64,000 nt of DNA from an uncultured Gammaproteobacteria bacterium (GTDB lineage: Bacteria; Patescibacteriota; Microgenomatia; UBA12405), in the NCBI GenBank assembly GCA_964544275.1, contig CAZIZX010000004.1:20251-84250 (forward strand). The letters run 5' to 3'. A program made the position numbers and the translations under genes. Each line of letters starts with the position of its first letter. The first letter of the stretch is position 1. Positions 35,982 to 45,081 of this stretch are shown here, piece after piece. The notes beneath the pieces are model-generated. The model searched no databases. It was not told the DNA's origin and saw only the letters and a list, made by a program, of their open reading frames with translations.

Positions 35982-37385
35982 TTGACTAAAAAGGAAAAGA
36001 TAATGAAGAATATAGATATAAAAAGTCTTATTAAGGACAATGTAATGTCGGCCGACGAAATCCTGGAATATATTAATGGAAATATCCCCTATGTTGGAAA
36101 AGATTTATCCAATGTAGTTCTATACAAGAATTATAAAGAGTGGAAACAGATTTTAGAGAAATACCCAAAATCGCAAATTATTAATACAAGTAGAAGGAAA
36201 ATATTATTTGATAAAGAAATGCGGAGCCTTGTTATACCAACTAATGAAGGAAATTTTAAAGGTTTCCAATATTCAATACAAGTAAAAGTGTTGAATTATT
36301 TACTGGGCACAAATATTACCTATCAAGAGATTGATCTTCATGATGAAAAAGAATTGTGGAATGAATGGACTTTACGGTTAATCAATAATTGTAAGAACTA
36401 CTCAGTTTCAAACATAACAGGAACTATCGTCGGTAGTATCAATAATACTTATTTTAGATTCAGTAAGTATTTAAATCATCCCATCCTTTGCAATTTGGAT
36501 GGATTCTATAAATCCATATTATCAACGGTGGAATTTAGGAAATATCTTGAGTACAGATTAGATTTAATTTTGGCCGAAGAAGATCTAGTGCTCGGTCGTC
36601 ATCAATTTGATAAAACCTTGTTCATCGATTTTCAACACATTCCTCTTCCTTCAAAAATGGATTATCAAAAATGCGTTGTTGCCAAGGACTATATCTATGA
36701 CCGACCAAATAGACTAGCCAAATTAAATTCAAACGAAAACTTAATTGATTACATTAAAGCTGATTATATTTATTCTCTTGATAGATTGAATCAAACAAAC
36801 TCTATTGATCCTGTATTTCAATCGGAAAATCCTATCATTGTTCGGGATTCATTATTGAGTTATCAGTTAATAAATACCGGGAAGGAATGGCTTATTAATT
36901 TTGACTGGGTTTCATCGAGTCAAATAAATAAAGCCCTGGAAATAATTTCCGGAAACTTTAATATTACCCATTTCTACAATTTTGGAAAATGTGGTTATTT
37001 CGGTAAACGCCTAAAAATCGGCGATTTGGTCAAGCCGATATCTTGTAAAAAGTATCCTGGGACAGGAGGAGAGATTAATTTCATTAATAACATTAGAGTC
37101 GGAACAGAATGCAAGAATTTAACAGTGGACTCGCCCCTTCTCGAGACTCGACCAGGGTTGGTGAATGAAGCAAAAAGCTTCGGATATTCGTCAATAGAAA
37201 TGGAGTTGTTTTATATGCTTAAGGCTCTTAAACCGCATTCCAAAAAATATATTTGTTACTATGTTTCCGATACGCCACTTTCAAATACCAAGTTATCTGT
37301 CAGACTCGACTCTTTAAAGCCTAGGCTGGAAGTTCTCGAAGAAATATTCAATGAAATAGTAAAAAATCATTTTATTGCTCAATAA
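35982..37385 (+). CDS. 467-aa protein with a C-terminal PNP/UDP-phosphorylase-like (nucleosidase) domain; N-terminal ~300 aa unknown
   Basis: 'GKCGYFGKRLKIGDLV' resembles the PNP/MTAN phosphate-binding 'G.AGG...L..GD.V' block. 'SSIEMELFYM' resembles the catalytic 'VEME(S/A)AA' block. The start abuts the HD gene stop. Confidence 0.4.
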   Translation: MTKKEKIMKNIDIKSLIKDNVMSADEILEYINGNIPYVGKDLSNVVLYKNYKEWKQILEKYPKSQIINTSRRKILFDKEMRSLVIPTNEGNFKGFQYSIQVKVLNYLLGTNITYQEIDLHDEKELWNEWTLRLINNCKNYSVSNITGTIVGSINNTYFRFSKYLNHPILCNLDGFYKSILSTVEFRKYLEYRLDLILAEEDLVLGRHQFDKTLFIDFQHIPLPSKMDYQKCVVAKDYIYDRPNRLAKLNSNENLIDYIKADYIYSLDRLNQTNSIDPVFQSENPIIVRDSLLSYQLINTGKEWLINFDWVSSSQINKALEIISGNFNITHFYNFGKCGYFGKRLKIGDLVKPISCKKYPGTGGEINFINNIRVGTECKNLTVDSPLLETRPGLVNEAKSFGYSSIEMELFYMLKALKPHSKKYICYYVSDTPLSNTKLSVRLDSLKPRLEVLEEIFNEIVKNHFIAQ

Positions 37386-37565: not shown

Positions 37566-38810
37566 ATGCTAGATATTAAATTCATTAGGGATAATGTTGA
37601 TATTGTTAAAGAAGGTGTCAGAAATAAAAATTATGACGACCAAATTGTTGATCAATTATTAGAAAAGGATTCGGAAAAAAGAAAAATTCAAACAAAAGTA
37701 GAAACGTTAAAAGGAGAAAAAAATAAACTTGGACCTGAACAGGCAGAACGAGGTAAAGAAATAAAATTAGAGCTAAAAGAATTAGAGGAAAAACTTAAGC
37801 AGGAAGAAGTTTCTTTAAATGATTTGCTAAATGAAATTCCAAATATTCCTTTAAAAGGGGTACCTGTAGGAAAAGGCGAGGAAGGAAACGTGGAGATCAA
37901 AAAATGGGGAGAGCCAAGAAAGTTCGACTTTGTGCCAAACAACCATTTGGATATAGGCAAAAAATTAGGAATATTAGACTTCGAGACAGGTTCTAAGGTT
38001 GCTGGATCACAGTTTTATTATCTTTATGGAGATGGGGCATTACTCGAGTTAGCTCTAGTTCAATATGCATTTAATTTATTATCAAAAGAAGGCTTTACTC
38101 CAGTTATTACTCCAGATGTAGCAAAATCTCGTTATTATCTTGGGACTGGTTATTCACCTCGCGGAAAAGAAGCTCAGACTTACAAAATTGAAGGTGAAGA
38201 TTTAGGTCTAATTGCTACAGCAGAAGTTACTTTAGCTGGCAAACATGCTGACGAAATTCTGTCACAAAGCATTCTTCCAATTAAATATGTAGGGTATTCA
38301 CATTGCTTTAGACGTGAGGCTGGATCCTACGGTAAATATTCAAAAGGTTTGTATAGAGTACATCAATTTACTAAAGTTGAAATGTTCATTTATAGTACCG
38401 CCGAAGACTCAAACAAATATCATGAACAGATTCTCAGCCTAGAAGAAAAAATATATCAAAATTTAGGATTGCCTTATAGAGTGCTTGAAATGTGCTCTGG
38501 GGATTTGGGAGCAATGGCAGCCAGAAAGTTTGATATTGAAGCCTGGATGCCTGGCAGGAATGAATATGGAGAGGTCACTTCTACCTCTAATTGCACGGAT
38601 TACCAGGCTAGGAACTTGAATATTAAATATAAAGCCAAAGACGGATCCACAAAATATGTTCATATGTTAAATGGCACAGCCATAGCAACATCTAGAACAC
38701 CATTGGCAATTTTGGAAAATTATCAAAATGAAGATGGCACTGTAACTATTCCTGAAGTGTTACGACCTATTATGGGTAAGGACAAGATCTTGTTGCCTAA
38801 ATCAATTTAA
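37566..38810 (+). CDS. serS: Seryl-tRNA synthetase
   Basis: N-terminal coiled-coil arm followed by class II motifs ('FRREAGS', 'GRNEYGEVTSTSNCTDYQARNL'). Confidence 0.9.
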   Translation: MLDIKFIRDNVDIVKEGVRNKNYDDQIVDQLLEKDSEKRKIQTKVETLKGEKNKLGPEQAERGKEIKLELKELEEKLKQEEVSLNDLLNEIPNIPLKGVPVGKGEEGNVEIKKWGEPRKFDFVPNNHLDIGKKLGILDFETGSKVAGSQFYYLYGDGALLELALVQYAFNLLSKEGFTPVITPDVAKSRYYLGTGYSPRGKEAQTYKIEGEDLGLIATAEVTLAGKHADEILSQSILPIKYVGYSHCFRREAGSYGKYSKGLYRVHQFTKVEMFIYSTAEDSNKYHEQILSLEEKIYQNLGLPYRVLEMCSGDLGAMAARKFDIEAWMPGRNEYGEVTSTSNCTDYQARNLNIKYKAKDGSTKYVHMLNGTAIATSRTPLAILENYQNEDGTVTIPEVLRPIMGKDKILLPKSI

Positions 38811-39480: not shown

Positions 39481-40200
39481 ATGTTACATATGATAAAAGC
39501 TGTTATTTTTGATTTAGACGGGACAATTATCACTGAGGACCATATTCAAGAAGGTTTAAAGTATGTCTACCGCAGAAATTCAAAATTTCTTAAAGATATC
39601 AGCCTTTCTGCTTTTTTGTCAGCAAACGAAAAGGCTGTCCAGCATATAATTGAACTCCGTAAAAAAGGCTCAATACTGCTTCATCAAACCGGAATACGGA
39701 TATGGTATGAAGTTTTATCTGACCTAAATATACCGTTGAGTGCTGAACTAGTTTATTCCATGTACAAAGATTTACAGAAGTTTATTTTAGAAAACATTAA
39801 GCTAGATCCTGAATTCATTCCGTTGGTAGAAGAGATAAAAGCAAAGGGGATTAAAATTGGAATACTGTCAAATGGCCTGTTTATTGAGAGATTTGAGCGT
39901 GTAGCCAAAGTAAAAATTATTAATTACATTAATGTGTTGGTTTCTTCTGATATGTTGGGGGTTGAGAAGCCCAATATAAAAATATTTAAGTATATCTGCG
40001 ATTTATTAGAAGTCGATCCCAAGGAAACAGTCTATGTTGGCAATGATTCTTATCAGGACATAAGAGGTGCTCAAAACACTGGAATGATCCCAATATTACT
40101 TGCCAAGAAAGGAGTTGAAGAACAAAAAACACTGGGATCGGTTACGATAGCCAGAAGTTTTGGAGAAATCCAAAAAATTTTAAACAATTTAATACCTTAA
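39481..40200 (+). CDS. HAD-superfamily hydrolase
   Basis: Motif I 'AVIFDLDGTII', 'GILSNG' (motif II region) and 'VGNDSYQDIRGAQNTG' (motif IV). Confidence 0.8.
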   Translation: MLHMIKAVIFDLDGTIITEDHIQEGLKYVYRRNSKFLKDISLSAFLSANEKAVQHIIELRKKGSILLHQTGIRIWYEVLSDLNIPLSAELVYSMYKDLQKFILENIKLDPEFIPLVEEIKAKGIKIGILSNGLFIERFERVAKVKIINYINVLVSSDMLGVEKPNIKIFKYICDLLEVDPKETVYVGNDSYQDIRGAQNTGMIPILLAKKGVEEQKTLGSVTIARSFGEIQKILNNLIP

Positions 40201-40947
40201 TTCATCATCGCAAATACTTATTTTTCCTTTTTCAAAAAAGTCATTAAATTCAATATATAAATTTGATACCACATTCCTCAGTTCATTAACTGAATATGAT
40301 TCCCCTTTGACAAATTTTTTACCCCAGGCTTGAAACGAAGGAAAATTTTGTTTTAGCTCAATCGAATCCTGAACTCGAGTCAAAGTTGTTTTATATTGAT
40401 GCTTATTTATTAAACCTACATAGCTCACTACTTTCCAAAATAAATAATCAGCCAAAGCATACATTCGGACTGTGTCTTCCCGGTCAGATGAATTGAAAAA
40501 TTTGCAAAACGTTTCGTATATATGATTAACGAACTCTTTTTTAAGATAAATACCAAAATCTTGTTTTATTACCTCTTTAAAATGGTTTTTGAATTCACTA
40601 ATTATTAATTCGTTGCCATAAATTACTTTTCCGTCCAAGTAAGTTCCCAGTCGTAATGGCCAAATAAGATCTATTTCACCGATGTCTTTGTAAACCAGAT
40701 TTTTGCCAAGCATTATAGTTTGGTACTTATGACCATTGAAAATTCCTTCAAATGTTTCTTTAAAATCAGGCGATTTCATTATAACTGTCAACTCAACATC
40801 TGAATATTTATCATCCTCATTTCTGCACACCGAGCCATATAAAATTATTGCCTCAATTTCACCTTTATATTTATCTCTAATTAATTCAACGAGACTATTA
40901 ATAAAGTCAACTCTTTCATCGTGTGTTTTTATAAATGGGTAGATCAT
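40189..40947 (-). CDS. ANT(4')/kanamycin-nucleotidyltransferase-like nucleotidyltransferase (Pol-beta superfamily)
   Basis: 'THDERVDFINSLVELIRDKYKGEIEAIILYGSVCRNEDDKYSDVELTVIM' aligns by eye with the KNTase N-terminus ('REERMKIVHEIKERILDKYGDDVKAIGVYGSLGRQTDGPYSDIEMMCVM'). GS...DxD NTase motif. 252 aa. Confidence 0.6.
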   Translation of the reverse strand: MIYPFIKTHDERVDFINSLVELIRDKYKGEIEAIILYGSVCRNEDDKYSDVELTVIMKSPDFKETFEGIFNGHKYQTIMLGKNLVYKDIGEIDLIWPLRLGTYLDGKVIYGNELIISEFKNHFKEVIKQDFGIYLKKEFVNHIYETFCKFFNSSDREDTVRMYALADYLFWKVVSYVGLINKHQYKTTLTRVQDSIELKQNFPSFQAWGKKFVKGESYSVNELRNVVSNLYIEFNDFFEKGKISICDDELRY

Positions 40948-40964
40948 ATTTTGCTGAATAAATA

Positions 40965-42473
40965 TTAGTTTTTAAATTGGGATTGAATAGACTCAATCAA
41001 CTGTTTTCTGATTATCTTGCCGCTACTGGTTCTAGGAAAATTGCTAATCCAAAAAAATCTTTTTGGGATTTTATTGGGGGGTAATTTTTGTTTAAAAACT
41101 TGTGATAGGTAGTTTTCATTTTCTTGGTGGCTAGGCTCATCATTTTCAGCTTTAGTTTCTATACAAAGAATTACTTTTTTAACATTGTCAATTTCAATGC
41201 TCCCTGCGACAACCACTAAAGCAGGATCTTCTCTCTTTACAACATTTTCAATTTCCTGCGGGTAAATATTTTCCCCATTTATCGTAAACATGTCATCTGT
41301 TCTACCTATCAAATATAGGTAGCCATCTTCATCGAGATATCCAGTGTCGTTTGTATGATGATATCCCAATTCATCAGAACACGCTGCAATCTTGCCGTCC
41401 TTAATATAGCCTAATGAGGTATTGTGGCCGGATGTTAATACTTCACCTTTTTGGAAAGGTTCACTTTCAATTTTATTGTTTTCAATATTGAGAATTTTGG
41501 TGTTGCACCCCTTAATCGCTTTTCCTACTGAGTTGGCTTTCCATAAGAAGTATTGTGAGGAGGTATGCAAAGGTGATAACTCAGTTTTGCCATATGCCTG
41601 ATATAAGTGTTTGCCAGTATTTTCATACCATTTCTTCTCAGTGGTAGCAGACAAGTAATCTGCCCCGCATAAAAAATATCTAAAATTTTCTAAACATTTT
41701 TTTACCTTCGCTGGATCTGATAAAAGCAAATCATAAACAGCAGGAATTCCAAATAGTGTATTGGCTTTTGAATCTTCCAGTTTTGCGAAGATTCCATCAG
41801 GGTCGGATAGTTTTATGTTGTCCAAATATAAGGTAGAACCGCAAAATATTGAGGCATTAAATATTACATTCTGCCCATAGCAATGGTAAAAAGGTAAAAA
41901 GCAAAAAATCTTATCTTCTGGGTGTATACCACAGTAGAAAGTAGCCATTTTCCGGTTATAAATTACATTCAAATGAGATAAGGCTACGGCTTTGGGTATA
42001 TTAGTAGTACCCGACGTAAATTGTATTGTCGCCAAATCATTGTATTGCTTATCTTCAATAATTAGGTCGGATTCAAAGTCCAAGCCGATTAACTTATCAA
42101 CTTCAACAATTTTTCTTTTTTGATTTAGTTTTTTGGAATATTCAGAATTTGTAAATATGAATTTTAAATCAAGCTTATTTACAACAGTCTCAATTAATTC
42201 CTCTGGCCAGTTTTGATTCAAAGATACTACGATATTTCCAGTTGCCAGAATTGAATAGTAGGCTACTATCCAGTCTATGCTATTTGGCATAAGTATTGCT
42301 AGCTTGTTGTCTTGGGAATTTTTTAGTGTCTCTCGAATATATTTTGATAAAGCGGCTACTTTAGTAGCTAATTGACCATAAGTAATATTGTCTTTGCTGA
42401 CCATGTCGACAACAGCCACCTCTTTTTCGAGGGTCAGTTTTTGCTCTTCAATTATTAAAGCTATGTTCGGCAT
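40965..42473 (-). CDS. AMP-dependent synthetase/ligase (adenylate-forming enzyme)
   Basis: 'FTSGTTNIPKAV' (A3), 'YGKTE' (A5), 'GYIKDG...DTGYLDEDGYLYLIGRTDDMF' (A7/A8) and the C-terminal 'SSGKIIRK' (A10). Confidence 0.85.
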   Translation of the reverse strand: MPNIALIIEEQKLTLEKEVAVVDMVSKDNITYGQLATKVAALSKYIRETLKNSQDNKLAILMPNSIDWIVAYYSILATGNIVVSLNQNWPEELIETVVNKLDLKFIFTNSEYSKKLNQKRKIVEVDKLIGLDFESDLIIEDKQYNDLATIQFTSGTTNIPKAVALSHLNVIYNRKMATFYCGIHPEDKIFCFLPFYHCYGQNVIFNASIFCGSTLYLDNIKLSDPDGIFAKLEDSKANTLFGIPAVYDLLLSDPAKVKKCLENFRYFLCGADYLSATTEKKWYENTGKHLYQAYGKTELSPLHTSSQYFLWKANSVGKAIKGCNTKILNIENNKIESEPFQKGEVLTSGHNTSLGYIKDGKIAACSDELGYHHTNDTGYLDEDGYLYLIGRTDDMFTINGENIYPQEIENVVKREDPALVVVAGSIEIDNVKKVILCIETKAENDEPSHQENENYLSQVFKQKLPPNKIPKRFFWISNFPRTSSGKIIRKQLIESIQSQFKN

Positions 42474-42486
42474 ATTATAAAGGTTA

Positions 42487-43122
42487 TTAATTAATTATTA
42501 TTTGAAGTATCTTTGATTTTTGATAACAATCCTCAATAGAATCTGGTTGCCACCAACCTTGGAGCTCGCTATTAGGTATCAATACTTTGTCTGCACAGGG
42601 AATCCTACCCGGACTAAATCTCCAACCCATAGGCCATAAGTCAACAGATTGATCAGGTTTGCCTTCGCGAACTTGTAGCGGCATACTGCCACTAAACTTT
42701 AAACCGAGCCGTGATTCGATAGCTAAATTTATAGCTACATGGTGGAACTGGTTTGGTAATCCCGGCACACCGACTAATAGCCTTGGTTTAAAAGCCTCCT
42801 CTCTTGTTACCAGATCTCTGTCGTAAACATAACTGGCATTTTTGATTACCCACCGGCTTTCTTCAGGATGTGATTGAAAGAACGATGTGTACCCTTCAAC
42901 ATATACTTCTTCAAATACCTGGTCAAAATCAACAACTCGGCCATTCGAATATCTCCATCTAACTCTCCAGTTATTTAATCCGTATTTCTCTGTCAATTCG
43001 GCTTCAATTCTGTCTCTATCTCTCCCAAAGAAGCCAATATTTTCTATAGTTTCCCATGCTTCGACATCTGACATTCTGTAATAATAACACCAAATCCATA
43101 TTATTGAATGTTTAGTTGGCAA
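42487..43122 (-). CDS. Hypothetical protein (211 aa)
   Basis: Protein-like composition, co-directional and tightly spaced with the AMP-ligase. No motif recognised. The probable start is the internal 'MSDVEAW'. Confidence 0.3.
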   Translation of the reverse strand: MPTKHSIIWIWCYYYRMSDVEAWETIENIGFFGRDRDRIEAELTEKYGLNNWRVRWRYSNGRVVDFDQVFEEVYVEGYTSFFQSHPEESRWVIKNASYVYDRDLVTREEAFKPRLLVGVPGLPNQFHHVAINLAIESRLGLKFSGSMPLQVREGKPDQSVDLWPMGWRFSPGRIPCADKVLIPNSELQGWWQPDSIEDCYQKSKILQIIIN

Positions 43123-43181
43123 GATCCACTATAATCATAGTACTACATAAAGTCTTCGTCATATACTGTCAAGCAATGGCT

Positions 43182-44033
43182 TTATTTTATATCTTTATCC
43201 AGGACGACTAGGTGTGGAATTGATAATTTTATCAAGTCATCTTTCAGTTTAGATAATCCGACATAAATGCCTGGGTGACATTCACTCATTTTCTTTTTGC
43301 TTCCACAAACACATTTTTTGTAACCTTTGATATTTTTCCTCTTTTTGAGCATTTGCTGAAGAGTGAACTTTTCTTCAGACCGAATTACCATCGAAAACAC
43401 TTTCTCCGTTTTCTCTCGTGAATGAGAATGTGTCTCCCCGTATTTCTCGATAATCCCTAATACGCCGTGAGCATATTCTCCCCAAGGCCAGTGTCGGTAC
43501 CTTTGGTAAAAAGTCTGCTCGTAAAAAAATGGAATAACCATCTGGTTAATGAATTCACTCAACTTAAATCCTGAGGGGAAGTATTCAACTTCAGCCCCCG
43601 CCACACACAGACAAACTGCCCCGTTTGGATTAACGTGAAGATCCGGCAGGTCAATTAAGTTACCCTTGGCGAAGCTCTCAATTTTTTTATCGACTTCAAA
43701 CACATGTGGCAGTTTTGAGGATGGAGTAGAGGTGAATGTCATTTTTATCTGGTATTCATCCTCAACATAGACTCCATTGCTTTGCCCGCCCGCCTGTGGT
43801 CCTATTAAAAACGAGTTATCTGAATTGTTGTAGCTCATAGCAAATTTCAAATTGCCTTGAATTTCATCAACCCCATCAACCCGTCTATCCGCAGTCAATA
43901 GAGGATGGTATTTTTTGAGCCACCCTAGATCTTTGATGGCGAGCCTTAGGTCAAAAGGTTCTCCACGGTTTGGGCGGTGAATGTCCGACATAGACGTTTT
44001 GGGTAAACTGCTTATTATCCTCAAGCTCTTCAT
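43182..44033 (-). CDS. Hypothetical protein (283 aa) with a SEC-C-like metal-binding motif
   Basis: 'KKCVCGSKKKMSECHPG' matches the SEC-C 'CxCGSxKKxKxCC/H' motif. The rest is unassigned. Confidence 0.35.
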   Translation of the reverse strand: MKSLRIISSLPKTSMSDIHRPNRGEPFDLRLAIKDLGWLKKYHPLLTADRRVDGVDEIQGNLKFAMSYNNSDNSFLIGPQAGGQSNGVYVEDEYQIKMTFTSTPSSKLPHVFEVDKKIESFAKGNLIDLPDLHVNPNGAVCLCVAGAEVEYFPSGFKLSEFINQMVIPFFYEQTFYQRYRHWPWGEYAHGVLGIIEKYGETHSHSREKTEKVFSMVIRSEEKFTLQQMLKKRKNIKGYKKCVCGSKKKMSECHPGIYVGLSKLKDDLIKLSIPHLVVLDKDIK

Positions 44034-44289
44034 TGAATATCATTTTCCAATAAGAAAGCGATCCCTCAATATTTCCATCGGATTCCTTATCGACGGCATT
44101 GGAGATTATTTCGTGAAGAGACTGAATTTTTCCCTTGATCGATTCTCTTGTCCAATCGTCCCAATCATCAAGGAAAAATCACCCGAAGAGAGGATTAGAG
44201 GCTATGTGATCCATGTCCTAAAAACTGGATTCTCGGAAGAAAAACAGGATATATTGACACTATTTAAGACAAGATTTATTTTAGAAGAC

Positions 44290-44332
44290 AAGCAAATAAG
44301 TATTTCCCCGAGGCCAGCCTCTGGCCTCGGGG
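44290..44332 (-). terminator. Strong hairpin terminator (perfect 12-bp GC-rich stem CCCCGAGGCCAG/CTGGCCTCGGGG, 3-nt loop) downstream of the HNH gene
   Basis: The stem is at 44306-44332, 15 nt past the HNH stop on the minus strand, followed by a T-rich tract (TTATTTGCTTGTCTTC). Confidence 0.45.
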
Positions 44333-44346
44333 AATGAAAGCCAACT

Positions 44347-44622
44347 TTAAATCAAGTTGCCACCTTTTACACTGTTATTGTGCCAGTTAAGAGGCTGAAG
44401 ATTAGAATAATGGTCCGATCCACCCTTTGAAACCGGGATGATATGATCAATTTCCCAACCATATTCCGAATTTCGGTTGCCATAATCGACAAATCGCATC
44501 GCAGTACCAAATTTGTCAAAACGGTATTCATTACTCACATCAATGCCGTCTCTGGTGGCTGGACCACCTTTGTTCCAAACAAATAATTTAACTTGATCAG
44601 TAATACTAATTTGATTTAACAT
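44347..44622 (-). CDS. Small HNH endonuclease
   Basis: 'EIDHIIPVSKGGSDHYSNLQPLNWHNN' is the canonical HNH motif (DH...N...H/N). 91 aa. Confidence 0.8.
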   Translation of the reverse strand: MLNQISITDQVKLFVWNKGGPATRDGIDVSNEYRFDKFGTAMRFVDYGNRNSEYGWEIDHIIPVSKGGSDHYSNLQPLNWHNNSVKGGNLI

Positions 44623-45004: not shown

Positions 45005-45081
45005 TGGCGGGCCCAATGGGATTCGAACCCACGATCTTCCGCGTGACAGGCGGATGTGCTAGACCGCTGCACCATGGGCCC
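45005..45081 (-). tRNA. tRNA-Asp(GTC), CCA encoded
   Basis: The reverse complement folds as a cloverleaf: acceptor GGGCCCA/TGGGCCC, anticodon loop CTGTCAC, T-loop TTCGAAT, discriminator G plus CCA. Confidence 0.85.

Follow-up and report, generated by a model that had tools for sequence, protein, structure and literature searches.

A row of five genes beside a tRNA-Asp contains a truncated E2-only CBASS and is probably a patchwork rather than one accessory operon

E2-CBASS are type II "short" forms of the cyclic-oligonucleotide-based antiphage signalling systems (CBASS), in which a CD-NTase (usually of clade G) is encoded with a single E2 and an effector, as outlined in Xiao et al. 2026 (PMC12948482), which cites Yan et al. 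2024. The cyclases of these systems carry a C-terminal helix-plus-sheet tail, an E2-binding motif with a conserved Gly, and the E2 enzymes work without an E1 (PMC12948482). In a separately described family, the kanamycin nucleotidyltransferases (KNTases), Glu145 is the catalytic base, E76 acts as a back-up base and contacts ring A, E142 contacts ring C, and E67, E76 and E142 all contact the aminoglycoside (PMC6361787). Here we analyse a 64-kb stretch of an uncultured, Patescibacteria-type genome (contig CAZIZX010000004.1, positions 20,251 to 84,250; hereafter the window), in which five minus-strand open reading frames (ORFs) next to a tRNA gene had been read as one accessory operon encoding an HNH nuclease, two proteins of unknown fold, an adenylate-forming ligase and a KNTase-like nucleotidyltransferase (NTase). 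Our analysis indicates, with a probability of roughly 75%, that the region, a variable accessory one, combines three or more unrelated pieces and does not form a single functional operon. These pieces would be a stand-alone HNH gene closed by its own strong hairpin, a decapitated E2-CBASS reduced to the E2 and a cyclase tail, and a trio (u195, ANL ligase and NTase) that is tightly packed, probably only loosely coupled in function, and apparently decaying piecemeal.

The 283-aa protein labelled in the original prediction as an unknown with a SEC-C motif is the ubiquitin-conjugating-like E2 of a CBASS, an identity that the label overlooked. Its likely true start is M15, the start chosen by gene callers, which gives a protein of 269 aa. 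It matches no Pfam or NCBIfam model. A PADLOC search returned the E2 model PDLC00865 (E = 2.6e-34) and the E1-E2 model PDLC00833 (E = 7.6e-21) for this protein. Eight homologue clusters were found, and in an alignment of eight homologues D117, H119, C127-L-C129, WPWGEY and C227xC229G...C238H239 are invariant and kept in the window protein; the invariant D-x-H-x-N...C-L-C loop is typical of ubiquitin-conjugating enzyme active sites. An AlphaFold model (mean predicted local distance difference test, pLDDT, 77) was compared with solved structures using Foldseek, and the top listed PDB matches are almost all UBC, UFC1 or UEV folds, with probabilities up to 0.98 and modest E values of at least 0.014. 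Of the two proteins originally credited with an unknown fold, then, this one has a UBC-like fold and only the other keeps that description. The zinc motif noted by eye corresponds to a SEC-C-like C-x-C-G-S-x-K-K-x3-C-H pattern (CVCGSKKKMSECH), in which C227, C229, G230, C238 and H239 are invariant among homologues; the Pfam SEC-C model stays silent at E ≤ 0.1. For the assignment as a CBASS E2, we count genomic context as decisive.

That context is uniform among the relatives. In all eight related loci (L002–L009) E2 shares ~41 nt with the 3′ end of a gene for a ~350-aa SMODS CD-NTase, and that CD-NTase gene is preceded by a gene for a ~170-aa membrane protein and one for a regulator of the LexA-like or HTH+M78 type. 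PADLOC recognises the proteins of these relatives as a cyclase (E = 1.5e-50) and as 1TM effectors (PDLC00664, E = 2.5e-56 and 6e-61), and the usual gene order in E2-only type II CBASS relatives is 1TM effector, CD-NTase, E2. Relatives with complete E2-CBASS operons are 42–75% identical. The regulator ahead of the operon is an HTH plus M78 peptidase pair (CapH/CapP-like) in L002 (5123–6472), where an 88-aa unknown gene also lies between regulator and effector, and a LexA-like S24 protein in L004 (5496–6466) and L006 (5873–6487).

In the window, the 313-nt spacer between HNH and E2 contains the 3′-terminal 75 codons of a CD-NTase gene, a pseudogene that the original prediction passed over. In a tblastn search it aligns with residues 276–349 of the 349-aa CD-NTase of L002 (window 44175–43954, 80% identity, E = 3.9e-38). 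The stub codes for ...NVYVGHSPPKPWRTF, which aligns with the same tail in the cyclases of L002, L004 and L006, and it corresponds to the C-terminal E2-binding tail with the conserved Gly (YVG motif) plus a tail of ~10 residues (...YVGHSPPKPWRTF). Stub and E2 share 41 nt at the E2 start, just as in the intact operons. Its frame has a stop codon directly upstream and no usable start, the only in-frame ATG lying 30 codons before the stop, and near 44180 the DNA abruptly ceases to be homologous to L002. The PADLOC cyclase model is matched only C-terminally (positions 250–312 of 344, E = 7e-4). Searching the 64-kb window with the L002 cyclase by tblastn recovered neither the rest of the gene nor any other SMODS match, and the 1TM effectors of the relatives found no tblastn match in it either. 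A 118-aa plus-strand ORF (43981–44337) antisense to the stub matches no family and was judged probably spurious; it ends inside the HNH hairpin, and its ATG falls within the palindrome ATGTCGGACAT, which also supplies the E2 start (M15) on the opposite strand.

Together, the E2 and the CD-NTase stub are a recently truncated E2-only type II CBASS. Loss of the effector and the first ~275 cyclase codons would go back to a deletion or replacement whose breakpoint lies near 44180; an intact E2 gene and the E2-binding tail of the cyclase, 75 codons without a start codon, remain. We consider the break recent because substitutions in the stub still follow the pattern of a gene under selection, while the E2 shows no rate acceleration. 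Over the 62 stub codons outside the E2 overlap, the comparison with L002 gives a ratio of nonsynonymous to synonymous substitution rates (dN/dS) of 0.13 at a dS of 0.92, with no frameshift. For the E2 itself dN/dS is 0.21, and a relative-rate test counts 12 changes unique to the window against 13 unique to its homologue P0004 (nearest outgroup P0005), with p of at least 0.23 for all six outgroups. The dS between the E2 and its L002 homologue, 0.63, is far lower than that between the seryl-tRNA synthetase (SerRS) of the window (37566–38810) and that of L001 (~2.6, saturated), which agrees with a fairly recent acquisition of the CBASS cassette by horizontal transfer. Since the cyclase core and the effector are missing, the relic should be unable to signal or kill, and we predict from its gene content that it is non-functional as a defence system.

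The arrangement of the five genes is not an assembly artefact, because L027, assembled independently from another sequencing run, matches it at 100% identity across 6,597 bp that span all of them. The exact 269-aa E2 (P0003) was not found in the contig index, and the L027 arrangement was recovered via u195. In no other examined genome is the five-gene set, or a four-gene set without HNH, co-conserved, and the single operon originally proposed does not survive this comparison, which the original prediction had itself set as a test: partial sets occur only in two sister lineages, the contexts of E2 are all CBASS, and 17 loci encoding u195 homologues lack both E2 and HNH.

The two sister lineages (L001 and L029) share the synteny NTase, HAD, GNAT and SerRS with the window, the SerRS being 85% identical, and neither carries E2 or HNH. 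In L001, u195 and NTase are intact and the ligase has been deleted, its last 25 codons (64% identity) remaining just upstream of NTase. In L029, ligase (65% identical to that of the window) and NTase are intact and overlap by 11 nt, while u195 is broken into fragments and pseudogenised. These remnants indicate that the trio is ancestral to this small clade. Because the sisters lost u195 or the ligase independently and kept the NTase, the three are not obligate partners; the NTase, at 74–76% identity in all three lineages and thus similar to the neighbouring GNAT, is the sole gene of the trio so retained. The site that in the window holds HNH and the CBASS relic is occupied in L029 (1–5800) by a type I restriction–modification HsdR gene, a YgjP-like gene and a PDDEXK_1 nuclease gene. 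The HsdR and PDDEXK genes mark the spot as variable and prone to defence genes, and it looks like a hot spot for them beside a conserved NTase/HAD/GNAT/SerRS synteny.

Several observations weigh against the patchwork interpretation. The ancestral adjacency of u195, ANL and NTase in the clade is also expected of a real three-gene pathway, and the intact invariant residues of the E2, with its unaccelerated rate, also fit selection for another role. No terminator-like site was found between E2 and u195, and read-through could join E2 to the trio. Promoter predictions are weak (25 sites against 20 expected, from a predictor built for sigma-70 organisms), and a second CD-NTase and effector could exist in the genome beyond the 64 kb examined.

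The first of these points bears on an alternative in which u195, ANL and NTase form one real, dispensable three-step pathway that is decaying piecemeal, with E2 and HNH as unrelated neighbours; such a pathway could, for example, act on a nucleotide-derived or other small molecule, modifying or salvaging it via acyl-adenylate formation and O-nucleotidylylation. The spacers of 13 nt (u195 to ANL) and 17 nt (ANL to NTase), the 11-nt overlap in L029, the remnants that place all three genes side by side in the common ancestor and the nucleotide-related chemistry of all three argue for it. However, u195 homologues outside the small clade never adjoin an ANL or KNTase-like gene, one lineage has lost the ligase but retains u195 and NTase, another has lost u195 but retains the other two genes, and a metagenome scan for wider ANL–NTase pairing returned only distant ANL relatives (25% identity) that have no NTase beside them. 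Adjacency among genomes with 85% identical SerRS may, moreover, just mean shared descent. We regard the pathway as unlikely, if still the most plausible of the rivals to a patchwork.

A different alternative would have the orphaned E2 recruited into a new E2-linked system, either with the KNTase-like NTase in place of the CD-NTase or with the ANL ligase as an E1-like activator. KNTase and CD-NTases share the Pol-beta NTase fold, the E2 is intact with its invariant residues and no rate acceleration, and no terminator was detected between E2 and u195. The stub, however, is proof that the E2 descends from a canonical CBASS that broke recently, and the trio is present without E2 in both sister lineages. 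The C-terminus of the NTase (…ISICDDELRY) lacks the YVG-plus-tail motif of the cyclases and shows no conservation of a Gly in the relatives; on the side of the ligase, the E2s of E2-CBASS need no E1 (PMC12948482). Recruitment of this kind therefore strikes us as the least probable account, and we keep to the patchwork, whose features are collected in Table 1.

Table 1. Features of the gene row and its surroundings (window coordinates; ORF limits as first delimited in the last column).
Feature	Position	Strand	Support	ORF as first delimited
tRNA-Asp(GTC), landmark	45005-45081	minus	ARAGORN; Rfam 69.4 bits	
Stand-alone HNH endonuclease gene, 91 aa	44347..44622	minus	PF01844 33 bits vs gathering cutoff 21.4	44347-44622
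Strong terminator-like hairpin 3′ of HNH, just upstream of the CD-NTase breakpoint	44304..44334	minus	14 pairs, 10 GC	
5′-truncated CD-NTase (SMODS cyclase) pseudogene, last 75 codons + stop	43951..44178	minus	tblastn, PADLOC	
E2 (ubiquitin-conjugating-like) of an E2-only type II CBASS, C-terminal SEC-C-like Zn knuckle, now orphaned	43182..43991	minus	PADLOC E2	43182-44033
u195, 195 aa, unnamed family tied to (deoxy)nucleotide metabolism	42487..43074	minus	exhaustive search with hidden Markov models, neighbour genes	42487-43122
ANL-superfamily adenylate-forming ligase, 502 aa	40965..42473	minus	PF00501 207.9 bits	40965-42473
KNTase-family NTase (Pol-beta NTase + KNTase_C/HEPN-like), 252 aa	40189..40947	minus	KNTase_C 43.9 bits vs 26.4	40189-40947

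The five minus-strand ORFs and the tRNA-Asp lie as originally described. The spacers, all of which had been called short, are so in two of the four cases, the 13 and 17 nt within the trio, and measure 107 nt between E2 and u195 and 313 nt between HNH and E2. Tight packing is thus confined to the last three genes, and u195, ANL and NTase are probably co-transcribed.

Every element of the row except u195 belongs to a known family, and u195, which lay outside the original hypothesis, is the only one with real discovery potential. The ORF of 211 codons probably starts at M17, giving 195 aa. With this corrected length its description as an unknown is upheld: the protein matches no model in Pfam, NCBIfam, PADLOC or PHROG, and Foldseek finds no match in PDB or BFVD for its confidently predicted structure (pLDDT 96). 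An exhaustive search with hidden Markov models gathered 257 cluster representatives at E ≤ 1e-3, where a word-indexed search had given one. Members are either stand-alone proteins of ~190 aa or domains within long proteins; many come from Patescibacteria and at least one from a phage-like contig, while the u195 subfamily has no viral match. All members sampled are annotated "hypothetical".

We retrieved 15 further loci, mostly from Microgenomates/Patescibacteria, and analysed the gene neighbourhoods of u195 homologues at 17 loci. At 10 of the 17 loci, nrdR is divergent from the u195 homologue, and at seven a gene for an HD_3/YfbR-like 5′-deoxynucleotidase follows it 3′ with a 4-nt overlap. Other direct partners are MazG-like, HIT and ASCH genes, and the homologue on the phage-like contig adjoins ThyA and a gene of the dNK/thymidylate-kinase family. 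The domain is also found fused to a cytidylyltransferase-like domain, to Methyltransf_28 and to a PRTase-like domain, and in a 4150-aa protein that bears HAD, cytidylate kinase, APH and HD domains. L014 (32–1164) carries two tandem u195 paralogues (180 and 197 aa) with a 4-nt overlap, ahead of the HD_3 gene. The partners of the window's trio are scarce in this set: ANL appears only as the 25-codon stub of L001, and NTase only in L001, the closest relative. Conversely, the NrdR, HD, MazG and HIT partners are found neither in the window nor in the sister loci.

On the strength of these neighbour genes, we take u195 to be linked to nucleotide metabolism and not to be part of the NTase or E2 system; in the window it would merely have landed beside the ANL ligase and the KNTase-like NTase. 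We give even odds to u195 being an uncharacterised enzyme family, with a fold unseen in solved structures, that acts in deoxynucleotide salvage, sanitation or modification; on this view its translation would be coupled to that of the HD 5′-deoxynucleotidase, MazG, HIT or dNK genes. NADAR proteins (YbiA and the DarT1-associated NADAR) resemble it in an E-x-x-Y-Q-x-x-K-like motif and in their association with nucleotide metabolism, and a relationship was considered and rejected as unsupported. Two of 56 family members give weak matches to the Pfam NADAR-DarT1 model (E ~0.01); hhalign against YbiA stays below 1% probability with both single and duplicated profiles (a test of circular permutation), and no NADAR structure is among the 50 best listed Foldseek PDB matches of the u195 model.

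The NTase at the end of the row carries the KNTase_C domain, on which the original prediction had staked its KNTase-like assignment, above the gathering cutoff, and this assignment holds. Residues 4–213 align with the KNTase structure 1KNY with a single one-residue gap (E = 2.3e-12, 22% identity). Scores fall slightly under the Pfam cutoffs for Polbeta (23.9 vs 26.9) and NTP_transf_2 (18.7 vs 21). Among KNTase residues, G38, S39, D50, E52, E67, K74, E145 and K149 are kept, while the positions of E76, E141 and E142 are occupied by Q, N and H, respectively, so that acidic residues of the kanamycin pocket are lost. Because the catalytic residues are kept and these three are not, the protein is probably active as an O-nucleotidyltransferase, its pocket being different and less adapted to cations; its substrate is most likely a hydroxyl-bearing small molecule other than a classical 4′-OH aminoglycoside. 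Its gene is flanked by those for the ANL ligase and a HAD hydrolase.

The original reading had gone further, to a single accessory operon conferring ANT(4′)-type aminoglycoside resistance or, failing that, an NTase-based toxin or defence module. The co-directional genes near a tRNA, the KNTase_C score, the kept G38, S39, D50, E52, E145 and K149, and full-length alignments to 1KNY and to the ANT(4′)-I family are what one would expect of it. Yet the full-length match to NF033061 (ANT_4p_I) reaches 81.6 bits against a cutoff of 350, the NCBIfam cutoffs for ANT_4p_Ia (52.5 vs 500) and ANT_4p_Ib (43.6 vs 500) are likewise missed, and the low identity to KNTase goes with replacement of the kanamycin-contacting E76, E141 and E142 (PMC6361787). 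The alternative as a toxin or defence module fares no better: the models for MntA, from MNT/HEPN type VII toxin–antitoxin modules (26.9 vs 60), and for HalB, from Hailong modules (23.8 vs 190), score far below their cutoffs, no HEPN or HalA partner adjoins the gene, and PADLOC matches only the generic NTase core of PDC-S09 and PDC-M05A. With no co-conservation of the row elsewhere and an E2 that derives from a CBASS operon, we judge this view very improbable, and on present sequence evidence the label of aminoglycoside resistance determinant is not justified.

The ligase is, as first called, adenylate-forming, and its sequence marks it as a generic acyl- or aryl-adenylate-forming enzyme. Its translation shows the motifs TSGTTNIPK, YGKTE, GRTDDMF..NGENIYPQEIE and SSGKIIRK. 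No NCBIfam equivalog cutoff is reached (PRK06187, 241 vs 476; MenE, 197 vs 330), and among solved structures the protein comes closest to the LgrA A-domain, MenE, and malonyl-CoA and oxalate-CoA ligases (E ~1e-41 to 1e-31).

At the other end of the row, the HNH gene was correctly recognised both as a nuclease and as set off by a strong terminator of its own. The protein also matches PHROG families of HNH/endonuclease VII down to 2e-8. The hairpin behind it folds at -29.6 kcal/mol (z = -3.98), none of 200 shuffled sequences folding equally well, and is followed by a weak T tract (ATACTTATTT). No HNH paralogue occurs elsewhere in the window, and the gene is missing from all related loci with the sole exception of the identical assembly L027. 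A role as the CBASS effector (Cap5-like) was rejected, given its length of only 91 aa without a SAVED or sensor domain, its own terminator and its position upstream of the breakpoint; a viral origin was also set aside, the single match being weak (37% identity).

The tRNA-Asp lies upstream of HNH at a distance of 382 nt. A role as an integration site for an island is not supported: no tRNA-derived direct (att-like) repeat was found between 36000 and 45200, a search that short att sites could escape. Apart from tRNAs, the Rfam scan of the window found no RNA family. GC skew is negative in nearly all 2-kb bins of the window, the cumulative skew descending to -6.7; only at ~36–40 kb does the skew come near zero or turn positive. 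GC content falls to 0.33 at 36–38 kb and over the ANL and NTase genes (40–42 kb). Upstream of SerRS lies a 467-aa ORF (35982–37385, plus strand) with no significant Pfam match; in L001 a 471-aa ORF, likewise without a Pfam match, occupies the syntenic position beside SerRS.

The main value of these results is corrective. What appeared to be a new resistance or defence operon beside a tRNA is better described as a patchwork, and the most mysterious gene of its row is a known CBASS E2 that a recent deletion appears to have left behind, an example of CBASS erosion in a streamlined, uncultured-type (Patescibacteria-like) genome. The results also show that the KNTase-like gene should not be listed among determinants of aminoglycoside resistance. 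The widespread and unnamed u195, without a solved fold counterpart and linked to deoxynucleotide enzymes, offers a tractable target for discovering functions in organisms reliant on nucleotide salvage.

Compared with known systems, the NTase shares with the ANT(4′)-Ia KNTase (1KNY, 6NML) the architecture of Pol-beta NTase plus KNTase_C, with ~210 residues aligned almost gap-free, and differs from it in sitting in an uncultured Patescibacteria-type genome without resistance context. The ligase resembles ANL acyl/aryl-CoA ligases and the adenylation domains of non-ribosomal peptide synthetases in its full AMP-binding domain and its A3, A5, A8 and A10 core motifs, the A10 Lys included; unlike MenE, malonyl-CoA synthetase and the LgrA A-domain, it has no carrier-protein or CoA-pathway neighbour. 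Set against E2-CBASS, the window system is incomplete, as it lacks the catalytic core of the cyclase and the effector, and the E2s of this clade are distinguished from others by their length (~260–270 aa) and their C-terminal SEC-C-like Zn knuckle. Like E2-CBASS, however, it encodes an E2 recognised by PADLOC's models for CBASS E2 proteins, with the catalytic Cys loop retained, and it preserves both the YVG tail of the cyclase and the 41-nt overlap between cyclase and E2.

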